Notes: a model not told the origin generated them from the sequence alone. 64,000 nucleotides of DNA from Terriglobales bacterium (GCA_052145015.1 JBKQPN010000102.1:12310-76309), one strand, 5' to 3'. Shown: positions 6,342 through 63,391, counted from the first letter of the stretch. Numbers and translations are program-made.

Positions 6342-6412
6342 GAGCGTTCCGGCGCAGCTTCCTACGGCCATACCTCCTGAACCGGGTCCGTGTCGCCAGC
6401 CATCGCTCCCCT

Positions 6413-12424: not shown

Positions 12425-12430
12425 TCTGCC

Positions 12431-47304: not shown

Positions 47305-48696
47305 CTACAGTCCTACATAGGTCGCGCGCTTGAGGAATTCGCCCTGGCCGGCGCGGCCGAGGAATTTGTCGCCTTCCACCACCACGCGTCCGCGTGAGAG
47401 CACCACGTCGGGCATTCCCGTGACTTTGATTCCCTCGAACATCGAATAATCCACCCGCATGTGGTGCGTTTTGGCGCTGATAGTGTGCTGGCGTTTGGGA
47501 TCGAAGATCACCAGGTCCGCATCGCTGCCGACGGCAATCGTCCCTTTGCGCGGGTAAAGGCCGAAGAGCTTGGCGGGCGTGGTCGCGACCAGTTCCACGA
47601 AGCGGTTCACGCTGAAGCGCCCCTGCGCCACGCCGCCCGAATACACCAGGCTCATGCGGTGCTCGACGCCCGGGCCGCCGTTAGGAATTTTGGTGAAGTC
47701 GCCGATACCCATCTCCTTCTGCTCCTTGTAGCAGAATGGGCAGTGGTCGGTGGAGACCACCTGCAGATGGTCGGCCTTCAGCCCTTGCCACAGCTTTTCC
47801 TGGTGCCACTTCTCGCGCAGCGGCGGGGTGAAGACATACTTCGCGCCCTCGAAGCCGGGCACATCGAAGTTCTCGATCGAGAGATAAAGATATTGCGGAC
47901 ACGTTTCCGCATAGACGGGCAGGCCGCGGTCGCGGGCTTCGCGGACTTTCTCCAGCGCGTCATTGCAACTGAGGTGGACGATATAGACGGGCGCGCCCGC
48001 CATCTCCGCCAGCGCGATAGCGCGTGCCGTAGCCTCGGCCTCCGCCGTGGTGGGGCGGGTGAGCGCGTGATACTTGGGCGCGGTCTTGCCCTCGGCCAGC
48101 GCCTGCTTGACGATCACGTCGATGGCGCCGCCGTTCTCCGCGTGCATGCAAACCATGGCGCCGGTCTTGGCGGCGCTGCGGAAGGCCTTGAAGATCGAGG
48201 CATCGTCGAGCATGAACACGCCGGGATAGGCCATGAACAGCTTGAAGCTGCTGACGCCGTCGCGCACCAGCGCCGGCATCTCGTCGAGGCAGGCGTCGGG
48301 CAGGTCGGTGATGATGCAGTGGAAGGCGTAGTCGCTGGTGGCTTTGGAAGCGGCCTTCTGCATCCAGGTATCGAAGGCGGTGCGCAGCGACTGCCCCTTG
48401 TACTGGATGGCGAAGTCGATCAGCGTGGTGGTTCCGCCGAACAACGCGGCGCGCGTACCGGTCTCGAAATCATCGGCGCTGGTGGTGCCGCCGAAGGGCA
48501 TGTCGAGATGCGTGTGCACGTCGATGCCGCCGGGAAAGACGTACCTGCCGCCGGCTTCGATCACGCGGCCGGCGTTCTCGCGCGGCAGGCTGCGGCCGAT
48601 GGCGACGATCTTCCCTGCTTCGATAGCCACGTCGGCGGCGTAGGTATCCGTTGCCGTCACGACCGTGCCGCCAGCGATAACCGTGTCGAACGCCAT
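47305..48696 (-). CDS. Dihydropyrimidinase / D-hydantoinase
   Basis: 463 aa. GGIDVHTHLDMPFGGT, the carboxylated-Lys region FKLFMAY, VHLS, STDHCPF. Confidence 0.9.
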   Translation of the reverse strand: MAFDTVIAGGTVVTATDTYAADVAIEAGKIVAIGRSLPRENAGRVIEAGGRYVFPGGIDVHTHLDMPFGGTTSADDFETGTRAALFGGTTTLIDFAIQYKGQSLRTAFDTWMQKAASKATSDYAFHCIITDLPDACLDEMPALVRDGVSSFKLFMAYPGVFMLDDASIFKAFRSAAKTGAMVCMHAENGGAIDVIVKQALAEGKTAPKYHALTRPTTAEAEATARAIALAEMAGAPVYIVHLSCNDALEKVREARDRGLPVYAETCPQYLYLSIENFDVPGFEGAKYVFTPPLREKWHQEKLWQGLKADHLQVVSTDHCPFCYKEQKEMGIGDFTKIPNGGPGVEHRMSLVYSGGVAQGRFSVNRFVELVATTPAKLFGLYPRKGTIAVGSDADLVIFDPKRQHTISAKTHHMRVDYSMFEGIKVTGMPDVVLSRGRVVVEGDKFLGRAGQGEFLKRATYVGL

Positions 48697-48777
48697 TCCG
48701 TGTGCCTCCTCCGCTAATCGGGATGCCGGTGCATTCTATGCTATATTTCCGCCACTTTTCCCGCGGGTGGGAGGCAC

Positions 48778-49785
48778 ATGAAATTCGGGATCACCTTTAA
48801 GCCGGACATGACGGTGGAGCGCATCCTCCGCCTGACGCGCCAGGCGGAGCAAGCCGGCTTCGACTACACGTGGATCTTTGACTCGCACGTGCTGTGGATG
48901 GACCCGTATCCGCTGATGACCCTGATGGCCGCCAACACCCGCCACATGAGGATCGGGCCGTGCGTCACCAATCCCGCGGTGCGCGACATCACCGTGACCG
49001 CCAGCCTGTTCGCCACGCTCAACCTGATTTCCGGCGGGCGCATGGACCTGGGCATCGGACGCGGCGACAGCTCACGTCGCGTGCTGGGCAAGAAGCCGGT
49101 CACGCCCAAGGAATTGGAACAGTCGATCCAAACCTTCCGCGACCTGACTGCCGGGCGCGAGATCCAGTACGAAGGCCAGCCCACGCGCATCACTTGGTCG
49201 AAGCAGTCGCCGCCGGTGTGGGTCGCAGGCTATGGACCGAAAGTCCTGAACATGGCGGGACGCGTGGCCGACGGCATCATCCTGCAATTCGCCGATCCTG
49301 ACCTGATCGAGTGGTGTATGGGGTTCGTGAAGGAGGGCGCGCGCCAAGCCGGGCGCGATCCCAAGTCGATCGAGGTGATGGCGGCGGCGCCGGTGTGGGT
49401 CGCGGAGAATCTGGAAACGGCGCGCGAGCATGTGCGCTGGTTCCCTGCCCTGGTGTCGAATCACGTGGTGGACCTGCTGTCGAAATACAAGCCAGAAGAA
49501 CTTCCGCCGGCGCTGACGTCGTACGTGCGCACTCGCGCCGGTTACGATTACCTGCATCACTGCGAGGTGGGCAGCGACAATGCGGAGTTCGTCTCCGATG
49601 AAGTGGTGGACCGCTTTTGCGTGGTCGGTCCCGTCGAAGCGCACCGCGAGAAGCTGCGCAAGCTGGCGTCGGTGGGCGTGACCCAGTTCAACATTTATCT
49701 GATGTGCGGCGAGGAAGAGCAGACGCTGGAGATCTACGAGCGCGAGGTGCTGCCGCAGTTCAGGGCGGCCAAGGCGGCGAGGTAA
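48778..49785 (+). CDS. Luciferase-like (LLM) flavin/F420-dependent oxidoreductase, Mer-like
   Basis: 335 aa. MKFGITFKP, AEQAGFDYTWIFDSH, GPCVTNPAVRD, SGGRMDLGIGRGDS. Confidence 0.85.
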   Translation: MKFGITFKPDMTVERILRLTRQAEQAGFDYTWIFDSHVLWMDPYPLMTLMAANTRHMRIGPCVTNPAVRDITVTASLFATLNLISGGRMDLGIGRGDSSRRVLGKKPVTPKELEQSIQTFRDLTAGREIQYEGQPTRITWSKQSPPVWVAGYGPKVLNMAGRVADGIILQFADPDLIEWCMGFVKEGARQAGRDPKSIEVMAAAPVWVAENLETAREHVRWFPALVSNHVVDLLSKYKPEELPPALTSYVRTRAGYDYLHHCEVGSDNAEFVSDEVVDRFCVVGPVEAHREKLRKLASVGVTQFNIYLMCGEEEQTLEIYEREVLPQFRAAKAAR

Positions 49786-49800
49786 GGCTTCTTTGAAGGG

Positions 49801-49818
49801 GCGCGGCTTTAGCCGCGC
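49801..49818 (+). terminator. GC hairpin after the LLM gene (weak terminator / REP-like)
   Basis: GCGCGGC-ttta-GCCGCGC. Shares the 12-mer GGCTTTAGCCGC with 40037..40048. Confidence 0.45.
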
Positions 49819-49840
49819 CGTTCTGGAATCTCTTCAAGAA

Positions 49841-49981
49841 TTGTCATCCCGAGCAAGCGCGAGCCGAGCTAGCGAGGTGAGCGCGACGCGAGGGATCTGC
49901 AGTTGATGAAAGTACAAACGCAAGGTCCCTCGGCTCGCGCTCCGCTCGCAAGCTCGCGTCGTGCTTCGCTCGGGATGACAA
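49841..49981. repeat. 141-bp palindromic element (arms starting TTGTCATCCCGAGC)
   Basis: Arms 49841..49896 and 49925..49981 are about 80% complementary by eye. Lies between convergent genes. A solo arm is at 21462..21521. Confidence 0.85.
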
Positions 49982-49991
49982 ATAGAACAAT

Positions 49992-51308
49992 TTACCGCGC
50001 TCCCACCGCCGCGTGGCGCTTCTCCTCCACGGCGGCCAGCGCGCGGTCGAGCAGGCGGATGGCCTCGTCCACATCGGCCTTCGAGATGTTCATGGGCGGC
50101 GACATGCGGATCACGTTGCCCCACAGTCCGCCTTTGCCGATCAGCAAGCCTGCGCGGCGCGCTTCTTCCATCAGTTGGCCGGTTTCCTGCGGCGCCGGCT
50201 CTTTCGACACGCGGTCTTTCACCAGCTCGATGCCCTGCATCAGGCCCTTGCCGCGCACGTCGCCGATGACGGAGTACTTCTCTTTGAGCCCTTCCAGTCC
50301 TTCGCGGAAGTAGTTGCCCACCACGTGCGTGTTCTCGAGGAGATTGTCTTCTTCAATCAAGTCAAGGGTAGCTTTGGCAGCGACAGAAGTAACAGGATTG
50401 CCGCCAAAAGTGGATATCTGCAGCCCGCGGAAGCTGGCGGCGATCTCCGGACGAGTAAACGTTCCGCCGACGGGCGCGCCGTTGGCCAGGCCTTTGGCGG
50501 CGGTGATGATGTCGGGAGTAACTTCCCAGTGCTCGATGCCGAACCACTTGCGGCCGGTGCGTCCCCAGCCGGTCTGCACCTCGTCGGCGATGAAGTCGCC
50601 GCCATACTGCTTCACTGTCTTGAAGACAATCTTGAAGTACTCCGGCGGAGGTGTGATGAATCCGCCGACCCCCTGGATGGGCTCGGCGATGAAGCCGGCG
50701 ATGCGCCCGGAGGTCGAAGTCTGGATAACGGCTTCCACGTCGTTCGCGCAAGCGACGCCGCAGTCGGGATAAGTCTTCCCCAGCGGACACCGATAGCAAT
50801 AGGGGTTCATAGCGTGGACCACGCCGAATCCCCCGGGCAGAGATTGCCGCCATGGGTTCTGTCCGGTGAGCGACTGCGCCAGTTGCGAGCGGCCGCTGTA
50901 GCCGTGGCGCAGGGCGATGATCTCGAAGTTGCCGCTGTGCGCGCGAGCGAGCTGGATGGCCATCTCGTTGGCTTCGGTGCCGCTGTTGGTGAAGTAGCTT
51001 TGGCTGATCTCGCCGGGGGTCAGGCGCGCGATCTTCTCCGCCAGCGCCACGATGGCCTCGTTGGGAAAAACCGTGGAGGCGTGCTGCAGCTTGTCGACCT
51101 GCGCCTTGACCTTCGAGGTGATGCGCGGGTTGGCGTGGCCCGCCGAAATGGTAACGATGCCGCCGAAGAAATCGAGATACTTCTTGCCCTCGACGTCCCA
51201 CAGGTACTGCATGCTGGCGTGGTCGGTGACCAGGGGCTCGGAGTAGTAGGTGCTGACCGAGGGGAACAGGTACTGCTTATATTTGCGGATGATCTCGTCT
51301 TTAGTCAT
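49992..51308 (-). CDS. Class-III (omega) aminotransferase, beta-alanine/AGXT2-like
   Basis: ATG at 51308 (MTKDEIIRKY). SGTEANE, DEVQTGWGRTG, and TAAKG, the region holding the PLP-binding Lys. Confidence 0.88.
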   Translation of the reverse strand: MTKDEIIRKYKQYLFPSVSTYYSEPLVTDHASMQYLWDVEGKKYLDFFGGIVTISAGHANPRITSKVKAQVDKLQHASTVFPNEAIVALAEKIARLTPGEISQSYFTNSGTEANEMAIQLARAHSGNFEIIALRHGYSGRSQLAQSLTGQNPWRQSLPGGFGVVHAMNPYCYRCPLGKTYPDCGVACANDVEAVIQTSTSGRIAGFIAEPIQGVGGFITPPPEYFKIVFKTVKQYGGDFIADEVQTGWGRTGRKWFGIEHWEVTPDIITAAKGLANGAPVGGTFTRPEIAASFRGLQISTFGGNPVTSVAAKATLDLIEEDNLLENTHVVGNYFREGLEGLKEKYSVIGDVRGKGLMQGIELVKDRVSKEPAPQETGQLMEEARRAGLLIGKGGLWGNVIRMSPPMNISKADVDEAIRLLDRALAAVEEKRHAAVGAR

Positions 51309-51316
51309 GGCAAACC

Positions 51317-52219
51317 TTAATCTGCGGCCGCAGCCCGGCCGCCGGTGGAACTCTGTGCGGTGAGAACGCCGTAGGTTTCGGGACGGCGATCGCGGAAGAA
51401 CTGCCACACCTTGCGCACTTCCGCGATCAGGTCGAGGTCGAGGTCGGCGACCAGCACCTCGTCCTTATCGCGGCTGGCCTGGGCGACAATTTTGCCGCGG
51501 GGATTGCAGAAGTAACTCTTGCCGTAGAACTCGCCGATGCTCCACGGCTTCTCGTCACCCACGCGGTTGATAGCGGCGATGAAGTACTGGTTGGCGACGG
51601 CGTGCGCCGGCTGCTCGAGCTCCCACAGGTATTCCGAGAGCCCGGCCACGGTGGCCGAGGGATTAAAAACAATCTCGGCGCCGTTCAGGCCGAGAGCGCG
51701 AGCGCCTTCGGGAAAGTGGCGGTCGTAACAGATGTACACGCCGATCTTAGCGTACTTGGTCTCGAATACCGGGTAGCCGAGGTCGCCGGGAGTGAAATAG
51801 AACTTTTCCCAGAAGCCGGGATGGCAGTGCGGGATGTGGTGCTTGCGGTACTTGCCCAGGTAGCGGCCGTCGGCGTCGATGACCGCGGCGGTGTTGAAGT
51901 AGAAGCCGGGCATGGTCTCTTCGTACACGGGGACGACCATCACCATGTGGTGCCTGGCCGCGAGCTCCTGCATGCGGCGAACGCTGGGGCCCTCGGGCAC
52001 GGCCTCAGCCAGTTCGTACCAGCGGGGGTCCTGCTCGGCGCAGAAATACGGCCCGTAGAAGAGTTCCTGCAGGCAGAGCACCTGGGTTCCCTGCTTCGCC
52101 GCCTGCTCGATCAGGCTGACGTGCTTCTGGATCATGGCCTCTTTGATTTCGGCCAGCGAGTGGTCGGGACCGAGAACATTTCGCGCCTGAATCAGGCCGC
52201 AGCGGACAATGCGAGGCAT
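51317..52219 (-). CDS. Carbon-nitrogen hydrolase (beta-ureidopropionase / N-carbamoyl amidohydrolase-like)
   Basis: ATG at 52219 (MPRIVRCGLIQ). LQELF (Glu), YRKHHIP (Lys), VYICYDRHFPE (Cys) catalytic triad context. Confidence 0.85.
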   Translation of the reverse strand: MPRIVRCGLIQARNVLGPDHSLAEIKEAMIQKHVSLIEQAAKQGTQVLCLQELFYGPYFCAEQDPRWYELAEAVPEGPSVRRMQELAARHHMVMVVPVYEETMPGFYFNTAAVIDADGRYLGKYRKHHIPHCHPGFWEKFYFTPGDLGYPVFETKYAKIGVYICYDRHFPEGARALGLNGAEIVFNPSATVAGLSEYLWELEQPAHAVANQYFIAAINRVGDEKPWSIGEFYGKSYFCNPRGKIVAQASRDKDEVLVADLDLDLIAEVRKVWQFFRDRRPETYGVLTAQSSTGGRAAAAD

Positions 52220-52252
52220 GACGGGTATCCCCCGGAAAGCCGCACTATAGCA

Positions 52253-52282
52253 TGTAGAGACGCAGTATGCTGCGTCTCTACA
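52253..52282. repeat. Perfect 13-bp hairpin TGTAGAGACGCAG-tatg-CTGCGTCTCTACA
   Basis: Read directly. A related GAGACGC...GCGTCTC hairpin is at 59363..59384. Confidence 0.9.
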
Positions 52283-52296
52283 GGTCTCGGCAATCG

Positions 52297-53436
52297 TTAC
52301 TGTTGGCTGGCCCTCATCTTTGTCTGTCTCACAAAAATCGATTTGGGCACCATGCAATGGATGCCCTTGCGGATGTCCACCACCTCCATGACCCGGCAAT
52401 CAGCGACCAGCGAAGCCAGCGCGTAAGCTTCGTAGCGGTCCATAGGCACCATCTTCTGGGTTGAGAGCCAATCAATCGTGTTGCGAGTGGCGATCTTCAT
52501 GGCTTCGGTGAGGTCTTCGTCGAAACCAGTGAATATCCAGTAATCCTTGTTTTCCGCCTGCGGCCATTCGACTTTCATGTCCTTGCGTACGATGGGCTGG
52601 ATCTCGATCTCCTTGTAAGCGCACTCCAGCGCTTCCAGGTTGACCTCGCCGTTGCCTTGCAGGCAGTGGGAGTCGCCGGTCCAGATCAGCGCGCCCTTGA
52701 CGAACACCGGCAGATACAGCGTGGATCCGGCCTGCAGTTCGTTCAGGTCCATGTTGGAGCCGTTCTTCCACGGACGCAGGGTGCTGGTGCGGCCTTTGTC
52801 GTCCTTGATCGGCGGCCCGGCCTTCTCCTTGGGTTCGTTGGGATCGGGAGCGACGGCGATGACGCCGGGAAACGGCTTGAGGTGGAGCACGATGCCGGGT
52901 TTGAACTCCGTGGTCATCTTCGCCAGGTCGAACTTGTAATAGCGGACGAAGCCTTCGGGGAATTCCTTTGGCAGCAGGCCGGTGGGAAACTGCTTGCCCG
53001 GCAGGTTGAAGTTCTGGCCGTATTCCTTGGGAACGATCTTGAGGATGCGTATCTCCAGGGTGTCGCCGGGCTCGGCGCCGTTCACGTAAATAGGGCCGGT
53101 GATGGAGTGCGGTCCGCCGCCGTCATTCTCCTTGCGCAGACGGGCGAGGTCGTCCATCGCCGGACCTTCGAGGGTGTGATCTGTTGGCTTAGGTTTGATC
53201 TGATCGAGGGCGTGGTACCAGGTCTCGATGGAGACGGTGTCGCCGGAATCCACCGTGAGCTTGGGCTTCTCGTTCACGTCGAACCAGCCCCACTGCACGT
53301 TCTCCTTGGTGGCGGGCAGTGTGTAGTGCTTGCCAGCCTCGGGCTTTTTCTTTGCCGGAGTCTGCTGGGCGAACGCTATACAGCTTGCGAAGATAGACGC
53401 GGCAATAACAGAAACCAATGCGGCATTGCGTTTCAT
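52297..53436 (-). CDS. Acetamidase/formamidase family amidase with signal peptide
   Basis: ATG at 53436 (MKRNAALVSVIAASIFASCIAFAQ). LTVDSGDTVSIET, GPHSITGPIYVNGAEPGDTLEIRI. Confidence 0.85.
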   Translation of the reverse strand: MKRNAALVSVIAASIFASCIAFAQQTPAKKKPEAGKHYTLPATKENVQWGWFDVNEKPKLTVDSGDTVSIETWYHALDQIKPKPTDHTLEGPAMDDLARLRKENDGGGPHSITGPIYVNGAEPGDTLEIRILKIVPKEYGQNFNLPGKQFPTGLLPKEFPEGFVRYYKFDLAKMTTEFKPGIVLHLKPFPGVIAVAPDPNEPKEKAGPPIKDDKGRTSTLRPWKNGSNMDLNELQAGSTLYLPVFVKGALIWTGDSHCLQGNGEVNLEALECAYKEIEIQPIVRKDMKVEWPQAENKDYWIFTGFDEDLTEAMKIATRNTIDWLSTQKMVPMDRYEAYALASLVADCRVMEVVDIRKGIHCMVPKSIFVRQTKMRASQQ

Positions 53437-53460
53437 CCTGGCCTCCCTTGAAGTGAATTG

Positions 53461-53505
53461 GACAAAAACACGACCGCAATGCCCCAAATGGGCAGCATTG
53501 CGGTC
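53461..53505 (-). terminator. Rho-independent terminator after the MFS gene
   Basis: GACCGCAATGC(CCCA..TGGG)GCATTGCGGTC stem at 53472..53505. On the minus strand it is followed by GTGTTTTTGTC. Confidence 0.65.
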
Positions 53506-53544
53506 CCAGATGGCATATATGCGGGCCCTACGAAAGCTTCACGA

Positions 53545-54885
53545 TCACGCAGCCCCGGACACTTGGCCCGACCCGACGGTGTGATTCAGCGTGGCTTCCG
53601 CGTTGGCGATTGTACGCCGGGCCAACGGCTTCAGCCAGAGTAGCGCCAGGAACGCAGCGAGGATATCGCAGGCAACCATGACGTAAAAGATCGGCACCCA
53701 TGAACCCGTCTTCAGCATTACGTAGGCGGCAACCGGCGCGGAAAAGATCGCCGCTGTTCCCTTTGCCGTATACACGAGGCCGTAGTTCGTGGTCGCCCAT
53801 TTGCGCCCGAACAGGTCACCCGTGATCGAGGGGAAGAGCGAGAAGATTTCGCCCCAGGCGAAGAAGACGAGGCTGGAAAGGATGACAAACATGGTCGGCC
53901 GACTAATGGTCTGCAGCCACGCCCAAATGAAGATGCCTTCGAGCAGGAAAGCGCTAAACATGGCATTTTCCCGGCCGATGTGGTCCGAGATCCAGCCCCA
54001 CAGCGGGCGAGTCACGCCGTTGACGATGCGGTTCAATTCAATGGCCAGGACCGTCGCCGACATTCCCCAGAACATGATCGCCTTATCTACTTTGTAGGTG
54101 GTGGCGATCACCTTGAGTTGCGCCGTCACCACCAGCCCGCCGAAGGCCACCAGCGTCATCATGAAATAGATCATCCAGAAGGAGCTGGTCTTGAGCATCT
54201 GCGCCGGCGTCATGTCCACACTGGAGCTGTGGACTTTCGCCTTGACCTGCGCCTCCTTCTCCTTCCAGTTCGGCGGCGTCCAGCCCTCGGGTGGCTTAGC
54301 CAGGAACAGCGCCGCCACCAACACAATGGCCCCCTGGATGAGGCCGAAGAAGATGAAGGTGTGCTGATAGCCGGAAACCTTGATCATGTTGGCGATGGGT
54401 TCAACGCTTACCGCAGTCCCCACGCCATAGGCGCCGGCGGTCAGCCCGACACAAAGCCCGCGGTATTCGGGGAACCACTTCAGGACATTGCCGATGGTGC
54501 CGCCGTAAATAAATCCGGCGCCGACGCCACCCACCATGTACCAGAAGTAAAGGCCGCGCAGGGTCTCGGCATAGCCGGAACCCGCCCAGCCCAACCCCAC
54601 CAGAACCCCGCCCATGCCCAGCATGAAGCGCGGACCAATGCGGTCGATCAACGCCCCTTCGAAGGGAACGAGCCAGGTTTCCACCAGGATGAAGGCTGCG
54701 AAGACACCCTGGACGACCGTGAGGGAAACGTGCAGGTGGGTTTGTATGGGTATAACGAACAGGGTCCAGGCATATTGCAGGTTCGCGATGGCCGCCATCG
54801 CAACGATGCCGGCGATCAACTGGATCCAACGATTGACGATGCGTGACGGGTGAATCGCGCCTGCGGGCGTCGCGTAATCAGCCAT
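53545..54885 (-). CDS. MFS transporter, oxalate/formate antiporter (OFA) family
   Basis: GGAGG 5 nt upstream of the ATG at 54885. RWIQLIAGIVAMAAIANLQYAWTLF, LIDRIGPR. 12 TM helices. Confidence 0.85.
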   Translation of the reverse strand: MADYATPAGAIHPSRIVNRWIQLIAGIVAMAAIANLQYAWTLFVIPIQTHLHVSLTVVQGVFAAFILVETWLVPFEGALIDRIGPRFMLGMGGVLVGLGWAGSGYAETLRGLYFWYMVGGVGAGFIYGGTIGNVLKWFPEYRGLCVGLTAGAYGVGTAVSVEPIANMIKVSGYQHTFIFFGLIQGAIVLVAALFLAKPPEGWTPPNWKEKEAQVKAKVHSSSVDMTPAQMLKTSSFWMIYFMMTLVAFGGLVVTAQLKVIATTYKVDKAIMFWGMSATVLAIELNRIVNGVTRPLWGWISDHIGRENAMFSAFLLEGIFIWAWLQTISRPTMFVILSSLVFFAWGEIFSLFPSITGDLFGRKWATTNYGLVYTAKGTAAIFSAPVAAYVMLKTGSWVPIFYVMVACDILAAFLALLWLKPLARRTIANAEATLNHTVGSGQVSGAA

Positions 54886-54999
54886 AAGCACACCTCCCCG
54901 GTGGCTCGACGGACTAACCAGTAATCAACAAAATGCCGTTTTCCTTTCTGCGTCCAGCTTGGTCCGGGAGCGAAACACTAGCACGGAATGCAACCTGGG

Positions 55000-55032
55000 A
55001 ATAAGAAACCGCCCGCGTCCTTACGCGGGCGG
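55000..55032 (-). terminator. Rho-independent terminator overlapping the beta-subunit stop codon
   Basis: CCGCCCGCG-tcctta-CGCGGGCGG (55009..55032). On the minus strand it is followed by TTTCTTATT. Confidence 0.7.
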
Positions 55033-56046
55033 ATGGTCAGCTTCAATCTCCCTATGGAAGGGGATGGCCCCCGGGATCAACCATTTGTTCCACATCTCGT
55101 CCACTTTGCTCTGGAAGTAATCGATATCGTCGTCGGTGAAGTGGGCGAAGCGTCCCTGGCGGAGCAGGTAATCACGCACCGGCTGCCGCGGAATGCGCTT
55201 GTCGGCGATCTGCTGGGTGCGGCCGGTCAGCCGCAGGACGCCATCTTCCACCTCATACAGCGGCCATATCCCGGTGTTCACCGACAGCTCGCCCAGCTCG
55301 TGCGACTGAATGGGGTCGTAGTCCCAGCCCTTGGGGCAGGGATCGAGCGAGTGGATGAAGGTTGGCCCGCCGATGGTTAGCGCCTTGCGGATGGCGTTCA
55401 TGCCCTGCAGACCATAGGACATGCAGATGGTCGCCACGTAGCGGCAGGTTGGATGCCCGGCCGCCATCATCCCCGCCATGTTCTTCTTCCAGCGGTGATG
55501 CATGATGCGCTTCACCGGGCCGGGCGTGCTGAAGGTGGTGTTGGCGCCCCACGGGGTACTGCCCGAGAGCTGGATGTCGGTGTTGGCATACGATTCGTTG
55601 TCGTACATCAGGATCAGGCAGTTGTAGTCGGGGTGGGTCAAGGTGGCGGAAATGCCGCCGAGGCCCATGTCCGCGCCGCCGCCATCGCCGCAGAAGGCGA
55701 TCACGTTGATGGGCTCGTTCTTCATCTTGCCCTTGCGCATGAGCGCCTTCAGGCCGGCGGCCGTGCCCAGCGCCGCCGAACCGCTGCTGCCGAGCTGGGT
55801 GTGCATCCACGGCACCGACCACGAGGTGCTGTAGTAGGTGGTGTTGGCCACGTACATGCAGCCGGTGCTGCCCAGCACGATGGTGCGCGGGCCAGCAGCC
55901 TTCACCATCATCTTCATCACCAGCGCCGATTCGCAGCCCTGGCAGGTCCGGTGCCCCGAGGTAAAGAATTCTTCCAGGGGCAGCTTCTTAACTCCCTTGA
56001 AAGGATCCAGATTCTGGGTCGGCTCGATATTTACGTAGGTAGCCAT
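55021..56046 (-). CDS. 2-oxoacid:ferredoxin oxidoreductase beta (TPP-binding) subunit
   Basis: CQGCES and GSTGC cluster cysteines. GDGGGADMGLGG...YDNESYANT TPP motif. Confidence 0.9.
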   Translation of the reverse strand: MATYVNIEPTQNLDPFKGVKKLPLEEFFTSGHRTCQGCESALVMKMMVKAAGPRTIVLGSTGCMYVANTTYYSTSWSVPWMHTQLGSSGSAALGTAAGLKALMRKGKMKNEPINVIAFCGDGGGADMGLGGISATLTHPDYNCLILMYDNESYANTDIQLSGSTPWGANTTFSTPGPVKRIMHHRWKKNMAGMMAAGHPTCRYVATICMSYGLQGMNAIRKALTIGGPTFIHSLDPCPKGWDYDPIQSHELGELSVNTGIWPLYEVEDGVLRLTGRTQQIADKRIPRQPVRDYLLRQGRFAHFTDDDIDYFQSKVDEMWNKWLIPGAIPFHREIEADHPPA

Positions 56047-56092
56047 CTGTTACTCGTCCTTTCTGGCGGCAGAAGCGCGCCAGCAAAATCGT

Positions 56093-57325
56093 TTATTCGC
56101 GCAGCCCAATCCACTGCGTCAAAGGTTGCGTCTTGCCCGCCGCCGCTGCATACACCGAGTCGGTCATGCGGGTGATGTCGGGCAGGGTCACCTCGCGGCC
56201 GCCCAGGCCGCAGATGAAGTCCAGCACCGGCAGCTTGGGACCGGGCGCGGAGTAGAGCGCGGTCTTGACTTCGTTGGCGACCACGCCGCCCATGTAGGGC
56301 GAGCCGAAAGAGTAGTCGCGGTCGACCACGCCCACTGCCTTGAAGCGACTGAGCGACTTGGCCAGCGCTTCCGCCGGGAAGGGACGGAACCAGCGCAAGC
56401 GCACGAACCCGACTTTCTTCCCTTCCTTGCGCATCTGGCGGACCGCTACCTTCATGGGGATGGAGAGCGTGCCCATGCCCAGCAGCACGATGTCGGCATC
56501 CTCGGTCATGTACTCCTCGAAGAACGGATTGCCGTAGGAGCGGCCGAAGATGCGCTCGAAGTCGGCATAGGCTTCCTTGATCACCGCCGTGGTCCGCTCC
56601 ATGGCGGCGTAGTTCTGGCGCCGGATCTCCATGACCCAATCCTCGTTCGCCTGCGGCGCGACGGTGATGGGGTTATCGGGATGCAGCAGCAGGTCAGCGC
56701 GGTTGTAGCGGGGTAGGAATTCGTTGACCTTTTCTTGCGACGGAATTTTCACCAGCGCCTGCGAGTGGGTAAGGAAAGCGCCATCGCAACTGATGCCGCA
56801 GGGCAAAAAGATCCTGCGGTCCTCGGCCACGCGATAGGCGATGAGCGCGGTGTCGAGGGCTTCCTGGGCGTTATCCACCCAGACCAGCATCCAGCCCAGG
56901 TCGCGCACGGCCAGGGCGTCGTTGTGCTCGGTTCCAAAGGCGCCGGGATCATCCAGAGCGCGGTTGCCCACCATGGCGATCATGGGAATGCGCAGCGCGG
57001 GGGTGACCGTCAGCGCTTCCATGGCGTACATCCAACCCACGCCGCTGGAGCCGACGAAAACTCGCGCGCCCACCGCGGACGCGTGCTTGACGATCTCGAA
57101 CTGCGAGTGTTCGCCTTCCGCCACGATGTATTCGCAATCCATCTCGCCATAAGACACCAGCTTGGCAACGTACTGCATGACGGTATCGTAGGGGCGAATG
57201 GGGTAGGCCGTGATCACGTCCACGTCGGCCAGCTTGCAGGCCACGGCAATGGCCTCGCTGCCCGTGATCAGGGCGGTTTCATCTGTTTTGTGGTGTTGTT
57301 CCAGCGTCTCTACCATCTGTGCCAT
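56093..57325 (-). CDS. 2-oxoacid:ferredoxin oxidoreductase alpha subunit (YPIRP variant)
   Basis: 410 aa. ITGSEAIAVA, AYPIRPYD (Arg where pyruvate enzymes have Thr), GNRALDDPGAFG. Confidence 0.9.
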   Translation of the reverse strand: MAQMVETLEQHHKTDETALITGSEAIAVACKLADVDVITAYPIRPYDTVMQYVAKLVSYGEMDCEYIVAEGEHSQFEIVKHASAVGARVFVGSSGVGWMYAMEALTVTPALRIPMIAMVGNRALDDPGAFGTEHNDALAVRDLGWMLVWVDNAQEALDTALIAYRVAEDRRIFLPCGISCDGAFLTHSQALVKIPSQEKVNEFLPRYNRADLLLHPDNPITVAPQANEDWVMEIRRQNYAAMERTTAVIKEAYADFERIFGRSYGNPFFEEYMTEDADIVLLGMGTLSIPMKVAVRQMRKEGKKVGFVRLRWFRPFPAEALAKSLSRFKAVGVVDRDYSFGSPYMGGVVANEVKTALYSAPGPKLPVLDFICGLGGREVTLPDITRMTDSVYAAAAGKTQPLTQWIGLRE

Positions 57326-57346
57326 AAACCGCTTTCCTCCTGATCA

Positions 57347-58519
57347 CTAACCTTCGCGCGCGATCTCCAGCATTTCGGGAACTTGCTCCTTGTACTGCCC
57401 GCGGTAACGGAAACCGTGCGAGCGTTCCGGCCGCGATTCGATCTTCTCCGTCAGCCAGGTCTTGTACCCGGGCTTGTCCTTCCTCCACGCCTCCCACTGG
57501 CTGGAATTGTCCCGGAACTCCGTTTCGTTGATCATGGTGACGCAGTTGGGCACCGGGCAGACAGCCTCGCAGACGCCGCAGCCGCAACAGGCCTGCATGT
57601 TGGCGTCGTAGAGACCTTCCGGGGTAACGTCGAAGCAGGTATCCGGACACTGCAGCCAGCACAGCGTGCACTTGATGCAGGTATCAAAGTCCACCACCGG
57701 ACGCATGGTCCGGGTGCTGAACTTCTTGAACGTGGGATTGCGATCGGGGCGATACCCGCCCATGGCATGGGTGCCGGGATCTTCGATCTGCTTGCCGGTA
57801 GCGATGCAGGGAATGGCCACACCATCGCCCATCTCGTGCCACTTGGGCAGATCGAACTTGTACGGCGTTTCCGGGTTCCCCTGGGTGGGACGGACCGTGG
57901 TGCTCGAAAAGCGCTCGTACGCCCGCTCCGCCGAGGCCGCCTTCACCGAATCGTGCCACTCGTCGAGGATGATCTTCTTGAGCCCGTCGAGCGTGAACAG
58001 CTCGGGCAGGATGCGGGCGATGGCCCCCAGGATGCGCACGTCGCTGTGGTCGTCCTTGTACACCCAAAGCCCGGAAAAGCTAGGCGTGCCTTTCAGGATG
58101 CCAAGCTGGTACGGGTACTCCTTGCGGTGCGCCATGGAAATCAGCGCCTCGGGCGTTTCCCGGGAGGTGACGATCAGTGTCCCGTCCTGCTGGAGCAGCT
58201 TGTTGACCGGCTGCAGCCCATACCACGCCCAAGACTCCACGCCCTTGCACAGGGTGTCGTCGAGGGCGATGGTGATGTCCACCTCCTTGGGTTCGTACTT
58301 CGCCATGCCGTGCTCGAGCGTCTCCTGGTCGGAGCCCACGATGGCGAAGCTCTTGGCCGGAATGCCGTTGCGCTCCGGGCTGTCGCTGTAGCGCCCGAAG
58401 CTGATGCCAGGCTTGCCGGCCTGGTGCGCCGCCAGCACGATACCCCGGCTGATGTTTTTGGCCAGGGTCTTCTGGAAAATCCCTCGGTAGATAATCTCGA
58501 CCGCAAATAACCGGCCCAT
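57347..58519 (-). CDS. 2-oxoacid:ferredoxin oxidoreductase fused gamma + delta (2x[4Fe-4S]) subunit
   Basis: GGAGG 6 nt upstream of the ATG at 58519. N-terminal gamma domain. CIKCTLCWLQCP and CCGCGVCEAVCP ferredoxin motifs. Confidence 0.88.
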   Translation of the reverse strand: MGRLFAVEIIYRGIFQKTLAKNISRGIVLAAHQAGKPGISFGRYSDSPERNGIPAKSFAIVGSDQETLEHGMAKYEPKEVDITIALDDTLCKGVESWAWYGLQPVNKLLQQDGTLIVTSRETPEALISMAHRKEYPYQLGILKGTPSFSGLWVYKDDHSDVRILGAIARILPELFTLDGLKKIILDEWHDSVKAASAERAYERFSSTTVRPTQGNPETPYKFDLPKWHEMGDGVAIPCIATGKQIEDPGTHAMGGYRPDRNPTFKKFSTRTMRPVVDFDTCIKCTLCWLQCPDTCFDVTPEGLYDANMQACCGCGVCEAVCPVPNCVTMINETEFRDNSSQWEAWRKDKPGYKTWLTEKIESRPERSHGFRYRGQYKEQVPEMLEIAREG

Positions 58520-58539
58520 GCGAAACCTCCGTCGTTTAG

Positions 58540-59271
58540 TCAAAACTTGTTGAGGACGATCTCCGATACCTCTTCGATGTGCCTGCGCATCGCCAGTTCC
58601 GCCGCGACCGGATCGTGCCGCTTGATGGCGGCCAGGATCCGTCGGTGGCCGGCAATGGATTTCTGCGGCCGCCCCTCCACTTGCAAAGAGCGTTCGCGAG
58701 TCTCCCGCAACAGGTCCATCAGAACATCCAGGACCTTCAACACCACGCTGTTGTCCGACGCCATGGCAATGGCGTAGTGGAACTCGTTGTCCTCCTCGAT
58801 GGCGGCGTCGCCCTGGCGGAGCTTCTCGCTCTGCCGCACCATGATGTCCTCCATCTCGGCAACGTCGGCGGCGGAGGCGTGGGTGGCCGCGCGCGCCGCC
58901 AGCGGCGGCTCCAGCATCTTGCGCACGTCCAGCAGTTCCACCACCAGCTTGCGTTTCTGCACCAGCACCGAGGTCAGGGGATTAATCAGGGCGTCCGCGG
59001 AAAGCTCGCGCACGATCGTGCCCGAGCCTTGCCTGGGTTCGACCATGCCCACCAGCTCCAGCCGGCGGATGGCATCGCGGATCGAGCTGCGGCTGACGCC
59101 GAAGCTCTCCGCCAGTTCGCGCTCCGGGGGCAGCATGTCGCCGGGCTTCATGCGCTCGGCAATGAGTTGCTCGAGCCGCCGCGCCACCTCTTCATAGACC
59201 TTGTTGCGGCGGATGGCCTCGAATTCGGGTTTGGCGGTGGCGTTCACTTCGTCGGTGATTGGTCCACTCAT
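58540..59271 (-). CDS. GntR family (FadR/FCD subfamily) transcriptional regulator
   Basis: LPPERELAESFGVSRSSIRDAIRRLELVGMV wHTH plus a helical FCD domain. 20 bp upstream of the oxidoreductase genes. Confidence 0.9.
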   Translation of the reverse strand: MSGPITDEVNATAKPEFEAIRRNKVYEEVARRLEQLIAERMKPGDMLPPERELAESFGVSRSSIRDAIRRLELVGMVEPRQGSGTIVRELSADALINPLTSVLVQKRKLVVELLDVRKMLEPPLAARAATHASAADVAEMEDIMVRQSEKLRQGDAAIEEDNEFHYAIAMASDNSVVLKVLDVLMDLLRETRERSLQVEGRPQKSIAGHRRILAAIKRHDPVAAELAMRRHIEEVSEIVLNKF

Positions 59272-59274
59272 CAG

Positions 59275-59302
59275 ACCATTGGTTCAGTTAGCGGACCAAT
59301 TG
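59275..59302. promoter_or_regulatory. Candidate GntR operator (two GACCAwTkGT copies)
   Basis: GACCATTGGT..N11..GACCAATTGT within 35 bp upstream of the GntR start codon. TTGGT-N11-ACCAA symmetry. Confidence 0.25.
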
Positions 59303-59476: not shown

Positions 59477-60669
59477 ATGAACTTTCTCCGATTTCTGCTG
59501 ACAATTGTGCTGCTGGCTTCGGGTTCCCTCGGCTTGTCGGCCGCGGATTCCAAGACTGCAGGTGGCACGGCCACCTTCACCTTGCCCTTCGAGCTGATCG
59601 ATAACCGTGTGTTCATCGAGCTTCGCCTGAATGGGAAAGGTCCTTACCACTTCATTCTCGACACTGGCGCGGTCGCCGATATAGGCGACCACGTGGCCCA
59701 GCAGCTTGGGCTAAAACCGGAAGAGGCCGGCGAAGGCCAGGGCGTAGGCGAGAAGAAACAGCACTTTGGCCGGACCCACATCGCCGCGGTTCAAATCGGA
59801 GAGCTGCAATTGCGCGACGTCGAATTCGGCGTCCTGTCCCTGGACGACTCACCCCAGGTTTTCGGCGCCAAGCCGGTGGCATCATCGGACTCGAAGTCTT
59901 CGAGCGGATGGTAGTGAAGCATGACTACGTGCGACGCATCCTCACCTTCACCCCGCCGGAGAAATTCACCTACTCCGGCGCGGGGAGCATCGTGCACTTC
60001 GAGCGGCCTCGCCAGATTCCCGTCGTCGAGGCCGAACTGGACGGCATACCCGGCAAGTTCGGTGTGGATACCGGGGCACGCTCGGCCATGCTGCTCTATG
60101 GCCCCTTCTGTGCCCAAAACCAGCTTCAGGAGAAATATGGCGCCAGGCTGGAAGGCGTGACCGGCTGGGGCCTGGGCGGTCCGGTGCGTTCACTGCTGGC
60201 GCGTGCGAAAGAACTCAAGATTGGCGATGTGCGAGTACGCGACCTCGTCATTCGGCTCTCCACCCAGAAAACCGGACTGACCACCTCTTCCGCGATGGCG
60301 GGATTGATCGGCCCCGATGTGCTGGCGCAATTTGACGTCACCTTCGACTACGCCCGCAGCCGCATCATCTTCGAGAAGAACCAGAGTTACGGACGCCGCG
60401 ACAGCTATGATCGCGCCGGCGTCTGGATGGGCCAGAATGGCAAACATTTCAGCGTCGTGGATGTGATTGGCGGAGGTCCCGCGCAGGAAGCCGGCGTGAA
60501 ACAGGGCGACACCATCCTTGCCATCGACGGCAAAAGCACCGAAACCCTGGTGCTGCCGGATGTGCGGGAAAGCATGCGCCGCCGCCCGGTGGGCGACAAG
60601 GTCAGTCTGCTGCTGGAATCCGAAGGCAAGCAGCGGACGGCTGTGATTACCATCCGAGACCTGGTTTGA
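59477..60669 (+). pseudogene. Two-lobed retropepsin-like aspartyl protease + PDZ, interrupted by a 1-nt frameshift near 59878
   Basis: ORFs 59477..59914 and 59908..60669. ILDTGAV and GVDTGAR motifs. The frame-2 reading GIIGLEVFERMVV continues ...VFGAKPV of frame 1 at GTG|GC. Signal peptide present. C-terminal PDZ (VIGGGPAQEAGVKQGDTILAIDG). Confidence 0.6.
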
Positions 60670-60757
60670 CCCCGTTCCCGGCTTCCGGGTTGCAACCGCC
60701 GCGTCCATCCACTAAAACAGTGGCAGCCGCTTGCAACCGGGTTCCACACGTCCGCCG

Positions 60758-63391
60758 ATGGCCAAACACTCCAGGGCATTCGCCGCCGGGACACTGCTGC
60801 TCGTCCTGCTCCTCGTGTGCCCGCGCACCGCGCCACACTTGGCGGCCAGCCCGGCGCCGGCGCGGGGCACCAGCGAACTCGGGCAACTGCTCATCAAGCT
60901 GCACACCACGGCGCGGCTGCTGCACACCGTCGCCCATCCTGACGACGAGGATGGCGGCATGCTGGTGCTGGAAGCGCGTGGAGAAGGGGTCACCGCCCTG
61001 CAGTTGACCCTGACCCGCGGCGAAGGCGGACAGAACCGCACCGGCAGCAACCTGTTCGACGAGCTGGGGGTGCTGCGCACCCTGGAATTGCTGGCCGCCG
61101 ACCAGTATTACGGGGTGGAGCAGCGCTTTACCCGCGTCGCCGATTTCGGTTACTCCAAGAGCGCCGACGAGACCTTCGACAAGTGGCACGGGCACGACGT
61201 CGCGCTCGCCGACATGGTGAGGGTAATCCGCACCTTCCGGCCGGACGTGATTGTCACTCGCTTCCAGGGCACGGCGCGCGACGGCCACGGCCATCACCAG
61301 GCCGATGGCATTCTCACCCGCGAAGCCTTTCGCGCCGCCGGCGATCCCTCGCGCTTCAGCGAACAGATCAGTGAAGGACTCCAGCCCTGGCAGGCGAAGA
61401 AGCTCTACATCCGCGGCGGCAGTGACGATTACACGCTGGCGCTCGACAGCGGCGCCCAGTCGCCGGTGCTGGGCATGAGCTTCGTGCAGTACGCCATGCA
61501 GGGCCTGCGGCACCAGCTCTCGCAGGGCGCGGGGGAATGGCAGCTTTCCGCGCGGCCGCACGTCTCCTACTACAAGCTGGTGGATTCGGTGCTGCCCCTG
61601 CCGCGAGAGGGCGCGCACGAACACGATTTCTTCGACGGCATCGATCGCACCCTGCCCGGCCTCGCGGACCGCATCGGCGGCGAGGAGTCCAAGGTCCCCT
61701 TCCTGCGCCCGGCGCTGGCCGCCATCAAGGAGCGGGTAGACGAGGCCACGCACCTGGTCCCCGGTCCTTCCTCCGGCCTGGCCGGGCCATTGCTGGCCGG
61801 CGAGCAGCAGGTGGCGGACCTGATGGACCAGATCGAACAATCGCAGCTCTCGTCCGCGGCGAAATCCGAGTTGCTGGTCAACCTGCGCACCAAACGGCAG
61901 CAGTTCCAGCGCGCGGCCGAGCTGGCCTTGAACCTGGAGCTGCGCATCTCCATCACGCCTCCGGGCAACGGCATGCTGGTTCCGGGACAGACGGTGCGCC
62001 TCGCGGCTGAGCTGCGCAATTCCGGCGACGAGGCGGTGCAAGTGCAGCAGATCGCGCTCGAACTGCCGGAAGGTTGGAGCGCGCCCCCGGTGTGGATCAG
62101 GCCGGCGCGGCTGAAACCCGGCGAGAGCACCACCGTGGCCTTCAACCTGACGGTGGCGGCGGATGCGGAGCTGACCCGTCCTTACTGGCACCGCGACGAT
62201 CCGGAAACCGATACGGTGTACCAGATCGACGATCCCCGCTATGCCACGCTTCCCTTCCCGCCGCCGCCGGTTGCGGCCCATGCGGTATTCGCGTTCGGCG
62301 CATACCGCGGCACGGTGCGGGCGATCGCGCGCGCGTCCATGGCGGAGAACAGTCCGCCACTGGCGGTGGTGCCGGCGTTCTCGCTGCTGATTGCGCCACG
62401 CACGCACGTAGTGCCTGCCGATTCCACCTCGCCGACCACGGTGGTGGTCGAGGTCCGCGGCTACGTCTCGGGCGAAGCCAGCATTTACTTGCGCGCGCCT
62501 CAGGGATGGACGGTCTTGCCCAACTCCGCCCCGGTGCGTTTCGAGCACAGCGGCCAGGAGCGGAAGGTCAATTTCAAGCTGACCCCGCCCGGCGGCGCCT
62601 ATCGTCCGGGAAAGCTCCGTGTGCGCGCGGTGCTGGAGGCCGCAGGGCGGCAGTATTCCGAAGGCTTCACCGTGGTGACGGGCGAGGACCTCGGCACCTC
62701 TTATTATTACCAGCCGGCGGTGGAGCAGTTGAGCGTGGTGAGCGTAAAAGTGCCGGCGGGACTGAAGATCGGCTACGTCATGGGCGCGGGCGATGACATC
62801 CCCACCGTGCTGCGCGAACTCGGCTTGAGCGTGGAGATGATCTCGCCGGATCAGGTGGCGCGCGGCTACCTCGGACGCTTCGACACCATCATCCTCGGAA
62901 TCCGCGCCTACGACACCCGCGCCGACCTCCGCCAGAACAACCGCCGCCTGCTCGATTACGTGGACCACGGCGGCACGCTGCTGGTGCAGTACAACACCAA
63001 TCCCGAGGAATTCAATGCCGGGCACTACACGCCCTATCCGGCCGAGCTCAGCCATGATCGCGTGAGCGTGGAAGAAGCGCCGGTGACCCTGCTCGAACCC
63101 TACGACCGGCTCTTCCGCTTTCCCAATGCCATCACCGAAAAGGATTTCGCCGGCTGGGTGCAGGAGCGCGGGCTTTACTTCATGGACAAGTGGGACAACC
63201 ACTACCGGCCGCTGCTTTCCTGCTCCGACCCGGGCGAGCCGCCGCGCGAAGGCGGATTGCTGCGGGCCCGCTCCGGCCACGGCACCTACATCTACACCGG
63301 CTATGCTTTCTTCCGCCAGCTTCCCAATGGAGTCCCCGGGGCCATCCGACTGTACGTGAATCTGCTGAGCGCCGGCCATGGTAAGCCCTAG
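60758..63391 (+). CDS. Large PIG-L (LmbE-like) family deacetylase with C-terminal GATase1/ThuA-like domain
   Basis: ATG at 60758 gives a signal peptide. VAHPDDEDGG and TRGEGGQN LmbE motifs. C-terminal DTIILGIRAY...HGGTLLVQYN. Confidence 0.8.
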   Translation: MAKHSRAFAAGTLLLVLLLVCPRTAPHLAASPAPARGTSELGQLLIKLHTTARLLHTVAHPDDEDGGMLVLEARGEGVTALQLTLTRGEGGQNRTGSNLFDELGVLRTLELLAADQYYGVEQRFTRVADFGYSKSADETFDKWHGHDVALADMVRVIRTFRPDVIVTRFQGTARDGHGHHQADGILTREAFRAAGDPSRFSEQISEGLQPWQAKKLYIRGGSDDYTLALDSGAQSPVLGMSFVQYAMQGLRHQLSQGAGEWQLSARPHVSYYKLVDSVLPLPREGAHEHDFFDGIDRTLPGLADRIGGEESKVPFLRPALAAIKERVDEATHLVPGPSSGLAGPLLAGEQQVADLMDQIEQSQLSSAAKSELLVNLRTKRQQFQRAAELALNLELRISITPPGNGMLVPGQTVRLAAELRNSGDEAVQVQQIALELPEGWSAPPVWIRPARLKPGESTTVAFNLTVAADAELTRPYWHRDDPETDTVYQIDDPRYATLPFPPPPVAAHAVFAFGAYRGTVRAIARASMAENSPPLAVVPAFSLLIAPRTHVVPADSTSPTTVVVEVRGYVSGEASIYLRAPQGWTVLPNSAPVRFEHSGQERKVNFKLTPPGGAYRPGKLRVRAVLEAAGRQYSEGFTVVTGEDLGTSYYYQPAVEQLSVVSVKVPAGLKIGYVMGAGDDIPTVLRELGLSVEMISPDQVARGYLGRFDTIILGIRAYDTRADLRQNNRRLLDYVDHGGTLLVQYNTNPEEFNAGHYTPYPAELSHDRVSVEEAPVTLLEPYDRLFRFPNAITEKDFAGWVQERGLYFMDKWDNHYRPLLSCSDPGEPPREGGLLRARSGHGTYIYTGYAFFRQLPNGVPGAIRLYVNLLSAGHGKP

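Follow-up and report, generated by a model that had tools for sequence, protein, structure and literature searches.

A widespread sister clade of oxalate oxidoreductase with a variant active-site loop, in a candidate oxalate-catabolic module from Terriglobales

A 64,000-nt stretch of DNA from a soil acidobacterium of the Terriglobales (GCA_052145015.1 JBKQPN010000102.1:12310-76309; 63% GC), hereafter the window, carries on its minus strand the genes for a GntR-type regulator, a three-chain 2-oxoacid:ferredoxin oxidoreductase (OFOR) and a transporter of the oxalate/formate antiporter (OFA) family of the major facilitator superfamily (MFS). A reading of the sequence alone (the original prediction) had proposed that they form an oxalate oxidoreductase (OOR) system like that of Moorella thermoacetica. 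We found that the three chains make up an OFOR of the OOR family, that they belong to a sister clade of the characterised enzyme with an altered active-site loop, and that they lie in a conserved regulator-operator-transporter module with recurrent oxalate-related neighbours in other genomes. As far as sequence can tell, OOR has here a widespread sister family that has gone unrecognised, and which combines an altered switch loop with a putative regulator-operator pair of its own and an OxlT-like transporter. We consider it probable, though well short of assured, that the region is a self-contained, oxalate-inducible catabolic module built around a coenzyme A (CoA)-independent oxalate:acceptor oxidoreductase with a variant active-site loop. 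Oxalate itself is the likely physiological substrate and would also act as the inducer.

All six minus-strand open reading frames (ORFs) of the region were recovered with the boundaries originally assigned to them. The gene set opens with the regulator, of the FadR/FCD subfamily (58540-59271; 243 aa; Pfam GntR 1.4e-20, FCD 3.6e-29). As had been noted, only 20 nt separate its stop codon from the ATG of the next gene, which has a GGAGG ribosome-binding site 8 nt 5′ of that ATG and encodes a fused chain of gamma (domain III) and delta (domain V, two [4Fe-4S] clusters) type (57347-58519; 390 aa; Pfam 4Fe-4S dicluster domain). The alpha chain (56093-57325; 410 aa; domains I-II; POR_N and PFOR_II) and the beta chain (55021-56046; 341 aa; domain VI; TPP_enzyme_C) follow. 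Overlapping the end of the beta gene is an intrinsic-terminator-like hairpin with a 10-bp stem, nine of whose pairs are GC, and then UUUCUUAUU (55009-55032, minus strand); its folding energy is -21.7 kcal/mol (z = -3.9), and none of 200 shuffled sequences folded as well. The OFA-family MFS transporter, a presumed oxalate importer, comes next (53545-54885; 446 aa; MFS_1 and TIGR04259), and downstream of its gene sequence and folding revealed a second terminator-like hairpin on the same strand, GACCGCAAUGC...GCAUUGCGGUC, then GUGUUUUUGU (about 53462-53505; -24.7 kcal/mol, z = -3.9). Both hairpins with their T-runs had been predicted. Beyond them lies a peripheral neighbour, an amidase of the FmdA/AmdA family (52297-53436, minus strand; Pfam FmdA_AmdA 7e-32).

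The assignment of the three chains to the OOR family is near certain, judging from sequence, profile and fold comparisons with the Moorella enzyme (Moth_1591-1593, EC 1.2.7.10; PDB 5C4I, 5EXD and 5EXE; NCBIfam NF045790-92). Among PDB entries, the alpha chain was closest to Moorella OOR (5c4i_A, 1.4e-99), followed by the alpha chain of Methanosarcina acetivorans pyruvate:ferredoxin oxidoreductase (PFOR; 2.3e-63), and the same order was obtained with the beta chain (5c4i_C, 4.7e-80; PFOR beta, 8.5e-57). The top match of the gamma-delta chain was OOR delta (5c4i_B, 1.3e-19), in two stretches corresponding to its N-terminal and C-terminal parts. Its N-terminal domain III was detected only through these OOR-delta matches, and Pfam PF01558 gave no match. 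When the gamma-delta profile of the window's clade was aligned by hhalign to Moorella-type delta, columns 7-335 matched 15-316, the full length of OOR delta, with a probability of 99.5% (E 2.4e-22). Structure prediction agreed: the AlphaFold model of alpha (predicted local distance difference test, pLDDT, 82) retrieved 5c4i_A as its top Foldseek match (TM 0.88/0.92), a fold that does not separate OOR from PFOR (TM 0.88 vs 0.87 for 9bt4_A), and the eight best matches of the gamma-delta model were all OOR delta chains. This second model is weak (pLDDT 59), because the available homologs are all at least 78% identical, and only its domain III part is informative. By PDB, NCBIfam, profile-profile and predicted-fold comparison alike, the best match of the chains was thus OOR and not a Por, Vor, Kor or Ior enzyme, and the delta-alpha-beta gene order is that of Moorella, in both respects as anticipated. 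The chains did not cluster with Por, Vor or Kor enzymes, and their substrate arginines aligned with those of OOR.

Inspection of the translations confirmed the motifs on which the original prediction had been built. The gamma-delta chain contains two CxxCxxCxxxCP motifs, CIKCTLCWLQCP and CCGCGVCEAVCP, and the beta chain the motif for thiamine pyrophosphate (TPP) and Mg, GDGGGADMG...YDNESYANT. In the OOR alignment, Asn143-beta and the beta-chain cysteines of CxxC, GCMYV and PCPKGW, ligands of the proximal [4Fe-4S] cluster, are conserved. Like Moorella OOR, the window enzyme has three chains in the order (gamma)delta-alpha-beta, a TPP motif and residues to ligate three [4Fe-4S] clusters. In alpha, Arg44 (within AYPIRPYD) and Arg122 (within GNRALDD) lie 78 residues apart and, in a HMMER alignment that is gapless between residues 20-211 and OOR residues 7-198, coincide with Arg31-alpha and Arg109-alpha of OOR. 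The equivalents of Arg109-alpha and Asn143-beta are also kept in other OFORs and have no discriminating value. Among the alpha representatives aligned, only Moorella-type OORs and members of the window-type clade have the arginine of YPIRP, and about 80 other OFOR alpha representatives carry YPITP.

The relationship between the two YPIRP groups was examined with an alignment of 95 full-length alpha representatives obtained by an exhaustive HMMER search. A tree of 52 sequences and 392 columns was built by our own vectorised neighbour-joining implementation on Kimura-corrected distances (not maximum likelihood), with 500 bootstraps. The whole YPIRP clade, the Moorella-type clade and the window-type clade were each recovered in 500/500 replicates. 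Mean alpha identity was 43% between the two YPIRP clades and 35% to other OFORs. The original identification as OOR stands as to family, gene order and arginines, but not as to orthology: the window enzyme lies in a sister clade at about 43% identity, and each of its three chains scores below the OOR cut-off.

The two clades are told apart by nearly invariant signatures near the active site, namely YPIRPYD with GNRALDDPGAFG(V/T)EH in 198/199 window-type sequences and (Y/F)PIRPYT with ...LDPPGDFG... in 122/122 Moorella-type sequences. The plug or switch loop of the window enzyme reads ALDDPGAFG (alpha residues 123-131); where Moorella OOR has TLDPPGDF, the window has ALDDPGAF, with alanine for Asp116 and aspartate for Pro113, and where Moorella OOR has YPIRPYT the window has YPIRPYD. 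Two acidic residues are thereby gained, Asp126 at the Pro113 position and Asp47, beside YPIRP, at the Thr33 position. In the alpha model, residues 123-132, that is, the switch loop, form the sole internal stretch of low confidence near the active site. The curated catalytic residues of OOR, taken here second-hand from two publications, are Arg31-alpha, Asp116-alpha, Glu154-gamma and Asn143-beta (PMC5020499, PMC12654022), and Arg31-alpha and Asp116-alpha are central to its bait-and-switch mechanism (PMC5020499 section 7; PMC12654022 section 3.4). Of these four, Arg31-alpha and Asn143-beta are kept and Asp116-alpha is lost. Glu154-gamma of Moorella aligns with an aspartate, the invariant Asp156, by both MAFFT and hhalign, at a position that adjoins a 4-residue indel and where similarity is weak. 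Since Asp116 is absent, the 'switch' half of the mechanism must operate differently, and the clade represents a natural bait-and-switch variant without the switch aspartate.

The gamma-delta chain differs from its Moorella counterpart in size as well. It is 75 residues longer, owing to an insertion in domain III, a linker of greater length and some 55 additional residues at the C-terminus (residues 336-390; 57347-57514). This C-terminal extension (…SQWEAWRKDK…RSHGFRYRGQY…) is conserved across the window-type clade, has no Pfam match and is absent from Moorella OOR delta. The PorABDG and VorABDG enzymes, exemplified by M. acetivorans PFOR (9BT4), share superfamily, fold (TM 0.87 to 9bt4_A), cofactors and electron path with the window enzyme, but they carry YPITP in place of YPIRP, are only ~30-35% identical and have unfused gamma and delta chains. 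Their CoA-dependent chemistry is presumably absent here, where the context is instead a dedicated regulator and transporter.

We then considered how the operon might be controlled. The regulator has the GntR + FCD architecture and the TGGT...ACCA-type palindrome expected of the FadR/FCD subfamily. Its nearest NCBIfam models, NanR, LldR, PdhR and GlcC, all scored under their cut-offs, and we presume from its sequence that it is a small-carboxylate-responsive repressor of the operon. The predicted operator is an inverted repeat, TGGTCCACTCATCAGACCA, with half-sites TGGTC and GACCA and a 9-nt spacer (59260-59278). It is the sole strict-type site in this part of the window and covers the ATG annotated as the regulator's start codon (59271). 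The true start may be an in-frame GTG at codon 9 (~59247), which would leave the predicted operator just 5′ of the coding sequence. Of 71 orthologous loci, 43, from several phyla, have a strict TGGTC-N7-10-GACCA no farther than ~35 nt from the start of the regulator gene; the background, 10 matches in 1.27 Mb or 0.0013 per 160 nt, puts the enrichment upstream of the regulator gene at several-hundred-fold. This placement fits an autoregulated FadR-type repressor, whose binding and effector would be as proposed here. A sigma-70 consensus scan gave no convincing promoter. The FCD-type protein encoded at the Moorella OOR locus is 29% identical to the window's regulator; orthology of the two was considered and rejected, as the similarity is only that generic to the FCD family. 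Operator-like TGGTC-N9-GACCA sites were also seen at genes for OprO/P-type anion porins in other loci, ~40 nt upstream of the gene in two (L063:14242, L072:14439) and at its start in another (L010:7177). The porin gene recurs near the module together with genes for a 650-aa secreted protein and a 160-aa small protein.

The transporter was correctly placed in the OFA family, scoring 458 bits against a cut-off of 335 with the TIGR04259 oxalate/formate antiporter model. Its best PDB match is OxlT of Oxalobacter formigenes (8hpj, 2.6e-57; structures 8HPJ/8HPK). For OxlT, 14 binding or gating residues have been named (PMC10070484). Despite low overall identity, ten of these are identical in the window protein (Gln34, Tyr35, Thr38, Tyr124, Ala147, Tyr150, Asn268, Arg272, Trp324 and Lys355), and four are replaced, by conservative aromatic changes at Tyr328 (Phe) and Trp352 (Tyr) and by Ile and Glu at Gln63 and Gln66, respectively. 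The same pattern, including Arg272 and Lys355, was found in 53/53 MFS proteins linked to the module; in the related lactate transporter SfMCT, the residue corresponding to Lys355 is Cys. OxlT also differs in that the window transporter is paired with an enzyme expected to yield only CO2, so that formate exchange is unlikely. Because the enzyme would make no formate, the transporter is probably a uniporter or symporter and not an antiporter.

The module is not peculiar to the source bacterium. In a single scan of GTDB, at least 586 species genomes contained a relative that carries the PIRPY motif, and we analysed gene context in the best 80 loci (74-96% identical; individual loci are given as L numbers). 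All 80 come from metagenome-assembled genomes (MAGs), mostly of Terriglobales and other Acidobacteriota, with others from Anaeromyxobacteraceae/Myxococcales, Armatimonadota, hot-spring lineages and further groups; the closest, at 96% identity, is from a Terriglobales MAG. Related proteins with E ≤ 1e-20 numbered over 5,000 in metagenomes, and the closest proteins were very numerous in soil metagenomes. The module is widespread in uncultured Acidobacteriota, Myxococcota and Armatimonadota. The order GntR-gamma/delta-alpha-beta was kept in essentially all 80 loci, across phyla, with the GntR gene upstream of gamma-delta in 72. An OFA MFS gene followed beta in 52 loci, and in seven a TctC-TctB-TctA set stood in its stead. 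Among the MAGs with the module are OY969886.1 and CAVPPV010000002.1. Several MAGs contained two window-type copies (L001/L052, L003/L053, L040/L056, L023/L078) with alpha chains ~76% identical, each copy having its own OFA transporter where the contig allowed. The Moorella locus is similarly organised, in the order FCD regulator, AAA ATPase, delta, alpha, beta and LctP permease, and shares with the window the FCD-type GntR upstream and a carboxylate permease downstream. It differs in having a CDC48-type ATPase gene, which is missing here, and an LctP permease where OFA MFS or TctCBA transporters are found here, as well as in its hosts, which are anaerobic Firmicutes and not soil Acidobacteriota, Myxococcota and Armatimonadota.

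Two sets of recurrent neighbours bear on the substrate. In up to 13 of the 80 loci the module adjoins an ortholog of oxalate-CoA ligase, whose top PDB matches are the plant and yeast oxalate-CoA ligases (6qjz, 2e-127; 5ie0, 1e-124; a further one, 2e-116), the next family following at 8e-73. Examples lie upstream of the regulator (L023, at about 1300-7900; L021, L027, L031, L032, L059) or downstream (L041, L042, L045). The usual neighbours of the ligase gene encode a PanE-family reductase and a class V (glyoxylate-type) aminotransferase, joined in some loci by a malate-synthase-like gene. PanE2 of Methylobacterium extorquens is an oxalyl-CoA reductase (PMC8411744), and the set looks like a route for oxalate-to-glyoxylate assimilation. 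The presence of ligase and PanE-family reductase in a subset of loci suggests that oxalyl-CoA assimilation might run alongside OOR-like oxidation. In four loci, a second OOR operon with Moorella-signature alpha and beta chains lies directly beside the window-type module (L019:2759-7729, minus strand; L020:6364-11264, plus; L036:8016-8669, plus; L063:1213-6062, minus). In this second operon, domain III forms a protein of its own (217 aa), and the ferredoxin domain is joined in one chain with a GltD-like NAD(P)-binding flavoprotein (610 aa); the enzyme may be an oxalate oxidoreductase linked to NAD(P). Two of the loci (L019, L063) have nearby a gene for a CDC48-type ATPase that shares 50% identity with that of the Moorella operon, and in L020 the second operon follows the window-type genes in the same direction with one regulator gene between. 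A further locus (L075) has an LctP permease 42% identical to the permease linked to Moorella OOR.

Taken together, these features can be assembled into the following scheme. The FCD-type GntR repressor would sit on the TGGTC-N9-GACCA site at the start of its own gene and repress the unit regulator-gamma/delta-alpha-beta, until binding of the acid frees it from the operator. The OFA transporter would import oxalate via its OxlT-type Arg/Lys pair, and the three chains would form an OOR-type (alpha-beta-gamma/delta)2 enzyme in which TPP, between alpha and beta, attacks oxalate held by Arg44 and Arg122. The mobile switch loop, devoid of Asp116, would instead bring the clade-specific Asp126, in addition to Asp47 by YPIRP. 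Two CO2 would leave without involvement of CoA, and two low-potential electrons would pass from the beta [4Fe-4S] cluster through the two in the delta domain and on to ferredoxin or another acceptor encoded elsewhere. Aerobic oxalotrophs that use frc/oxc, or oxalyl-CoA synthetase and PanE2 as in M. extorquens, presumably share this substrate and the soil niche. They differ in that the window has no oxc, frc, oxalate-CoA ligase or PanE-like gene and that an OOR-type reaction is CoA- and formate-free. As originally claimed, no domain of the oxc/frc type (TPP_enzyme_N/M, CoA_transf_3) was present in the ORFs called in the window, five of which lacked any Pfam match. Nor did the window contain homologs of the ligase, PanE-like, aminotransferase, malate synthase, CDC48 ATPase or LctP neighbour genes.

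Several observations weigh against oxalate as the substrate, or against a catabolic role of this kind. The window enzyme falls outside the clade that holds the characterised OOR, at an identity of only ~43%, and the position of Asp116-alpha is occupied by alanine (Ala129 here) in 199/199 sequences of its clade. Although the NCBIfam OOR models score highest for all three chains, they remain below the equivalog cut-offs (alpha, NF045791, 384 vs 500 bits; beta, NF045792, 322 vs 590; delta, NF045790, 80 vs 230). Members of both YPIRP clades occur together in individual genomes, as is often seen where functions have diverged. The ligase and Moorella-type neighbours are found in a minority of loci and are absent from the window, and no electron-acceptor gene is linked to the module. 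A look-up of the protein cluster gave metagenomic sources only, with no cultured carrier. OFORs are often oxygen-sensitive, and many Terriglobales are aerobic. As to the transporter, the OxlT-site residues are conserved throughout the OFA family and thus argue for a small dianion, not for oxalate uniquely. OFA members other than OxlT are all uncharacterised (PMC10070484).

The main alternative, which we regard as doubtful but worth serious attention, is that the window-type clade is a neofunctionalised sister of OOR that employs the same TPP/Fe-S machinery on another small 2-oxoacid or analogue, such as glyoxylate, oxamate, mesoxalate or hydroxypyruvate. A substrate whose second group is no carboxylate would then account for the disappearance of Asp116 and the appearance of Asp47 and Asp126. 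Invariant and differing loop signatures in the two clades, and scores of every chain below the OOR equivalog cut-offs, speak for such divergence; the sharing of genomes by the two clades, even in adjacent operons, fits a division of labour. Glyoxylate-using neighbours recur (the class V aminotransferase and the malate-synthase-like protein), and the FmdA/AmdA amidase encoded near the module in the window and five other loci could supply the acid from an amide. However, Arg31, which binds the second carboxylate in OOR, is strictly kept, an acidic residue is retained at the Glu154-gamma position, and the linked transporter has both of the basic residues with which OxlT binds its dianion. Moreover, the most specific recurrent neighbour is the oxalate-CoA ligase ortholog and no glyoxylate-specific enzyme, and a shared substrate would explain at least equally well why the genes adjoin a Moorella-type OOR behind one regulator. 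In its strongest form, in which the clade is not an oxalate enzyme at all but a loop-remodelled OOR descendant with a new 2-oxoacid:acceptor specificity (glyoxylate, oxamate or another C2-C3 acid), present alongside true OOR in soil Acidobacteria, this alternative strikes us as unlikely; if true, the non-oxalate specificity would amount to a novel enzyme activity with a wide distribution among uncultured soil bacteria. It is highly improbable that the enzyme is an ordinary pyruvate, 2-oxoisovalerate or 2-oxoglutarate:ferredoxin oxidoreductase. Relatives are publicly named by JGI and NCBI as 'pyruvate ferredoxin oxidoreductase alpha/delta subunit', '4Fe-4S dicluster-binding protein' or hypothetical, and PorA_Arch is the second-best NCBIfam model (355 bits). 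Against this, arginine replaces the threonine of YPITP, the Por models are all far below their cut-offs (PorA_Arch 355 vs 550, PorB 279 vs 405, PorD_Arch 54 vs 120 bits), and the YPIRP clade, supported in 500/500 replicates, is only ~35% identical to YPITP enzymes. The three-chain layout, with gamma and delta fused, is that of OOR, and the setting is one of a dedicated regulator and a dicarboxylate transporter, not of central metabolism.

The amidase raises a narrower question. Were it part of the module here, oxamate, oxamide or formamide could be hydrolysed outside the cell or in the periplasm and the resulting acid imported by the OFA transporter and oxidised, a scheme to which we give little credence. 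Its gene directly follows that of the MFS transporter on the same strand in the window and in two other loci (L001, L002), with a related gene just upstream of the regulator in another two (L026, L040), and its N-terminus, MKRNAALVSVIAASIFASCIAFAQQ, resembles a signal peptide by eye. Its inclusion in the system did not survive comparison among genomes: a member of the amidase cluster occurs near the module in only 6/80 loci, in varying position and orientation. In addition, a strong predicted terminator intervenes between it and the MFS gene, no operator site was found upstream of it, and with the formamidase model it reaches only 68 bits against a cut-off of 500. Its best PDB matches are uncharacterised acetamidase-like proteins. 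An oxalate module made up of the regulator, the three enzyme chains and the transporter remains the reading that we prefer.

If the sister clade does oxidise oxalate, it would provide a CoA-independent, formate-free route in dominant soil phyla. According to reviews, surveys of oxalotrophy based on oxc/frc are underestimates owing to alternative routes (PMC13409138). In the surveys and reviews consulted, OOR has been treated as an enzyme of anaerobes and left unsurveyed (PMC8062136, PMC12654022). In the literature that we could search, OOR is omitted from surveys of oxalotrophy, and Acidobacteria are mentioned solely for oxc sequences. The module may be a route of oxalate breakdown that is invisible to current gene surveys. 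Its genes are labelled 'pyruvate ferredoxin oxidoreductase' in present annotation. It also offers a defined candidate operator-regulator pair and several testable constructs.

ORFs elsewhere in the window were called by codon-position GC and then scanned with Pfam; the window gave no hit in Rfam or tRNA scans. Next to the amidase, the region 47305-52399 encodes a dihydropyrimidinase-like amidohydrolase, a luciferase-like oxidoreductase (plus strand), a class III aminotransferase and a CN-hydrolase, resembling reductive pyrimidine or beta-amino-acid catabolism. The dihydropyrimidinase, CN-hydrolase and aminotransferase genes were considered as parts of the module and rejected, their synteny being limited to the closest relatives (L001, L005). 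Two gene calls deserve comment. In the 739-aa ORF at 43176-45395 (minus strand), which is followed by hemC and hemD (41431-43175), glutamyl-tRNA reductase domains begin only at residue 316; an overlapping 271-aa ORF (44465-45280, minus strand) has a stronger codon-position GC signal, so that the longer ORF is probably over-called and masks a separate upstream gene. By the same criterion, the 988-aa ORF at 60647-63613 (minus strand) is an antisense artefact of a PIG-L/NPCBM-associated gene at 60731-63391 (plus strand), and long spurious ORFs of this kind are many in a window of such GC content. Finally, a large polysaccharide-biosynthesis cluster, unrelated to the oxidoreductase module, occupies 243-13324 and encodes epimerases, glycosyltransferases of families 1, 2 and 4, a carbamoyltransferase and an asparagine synthase.

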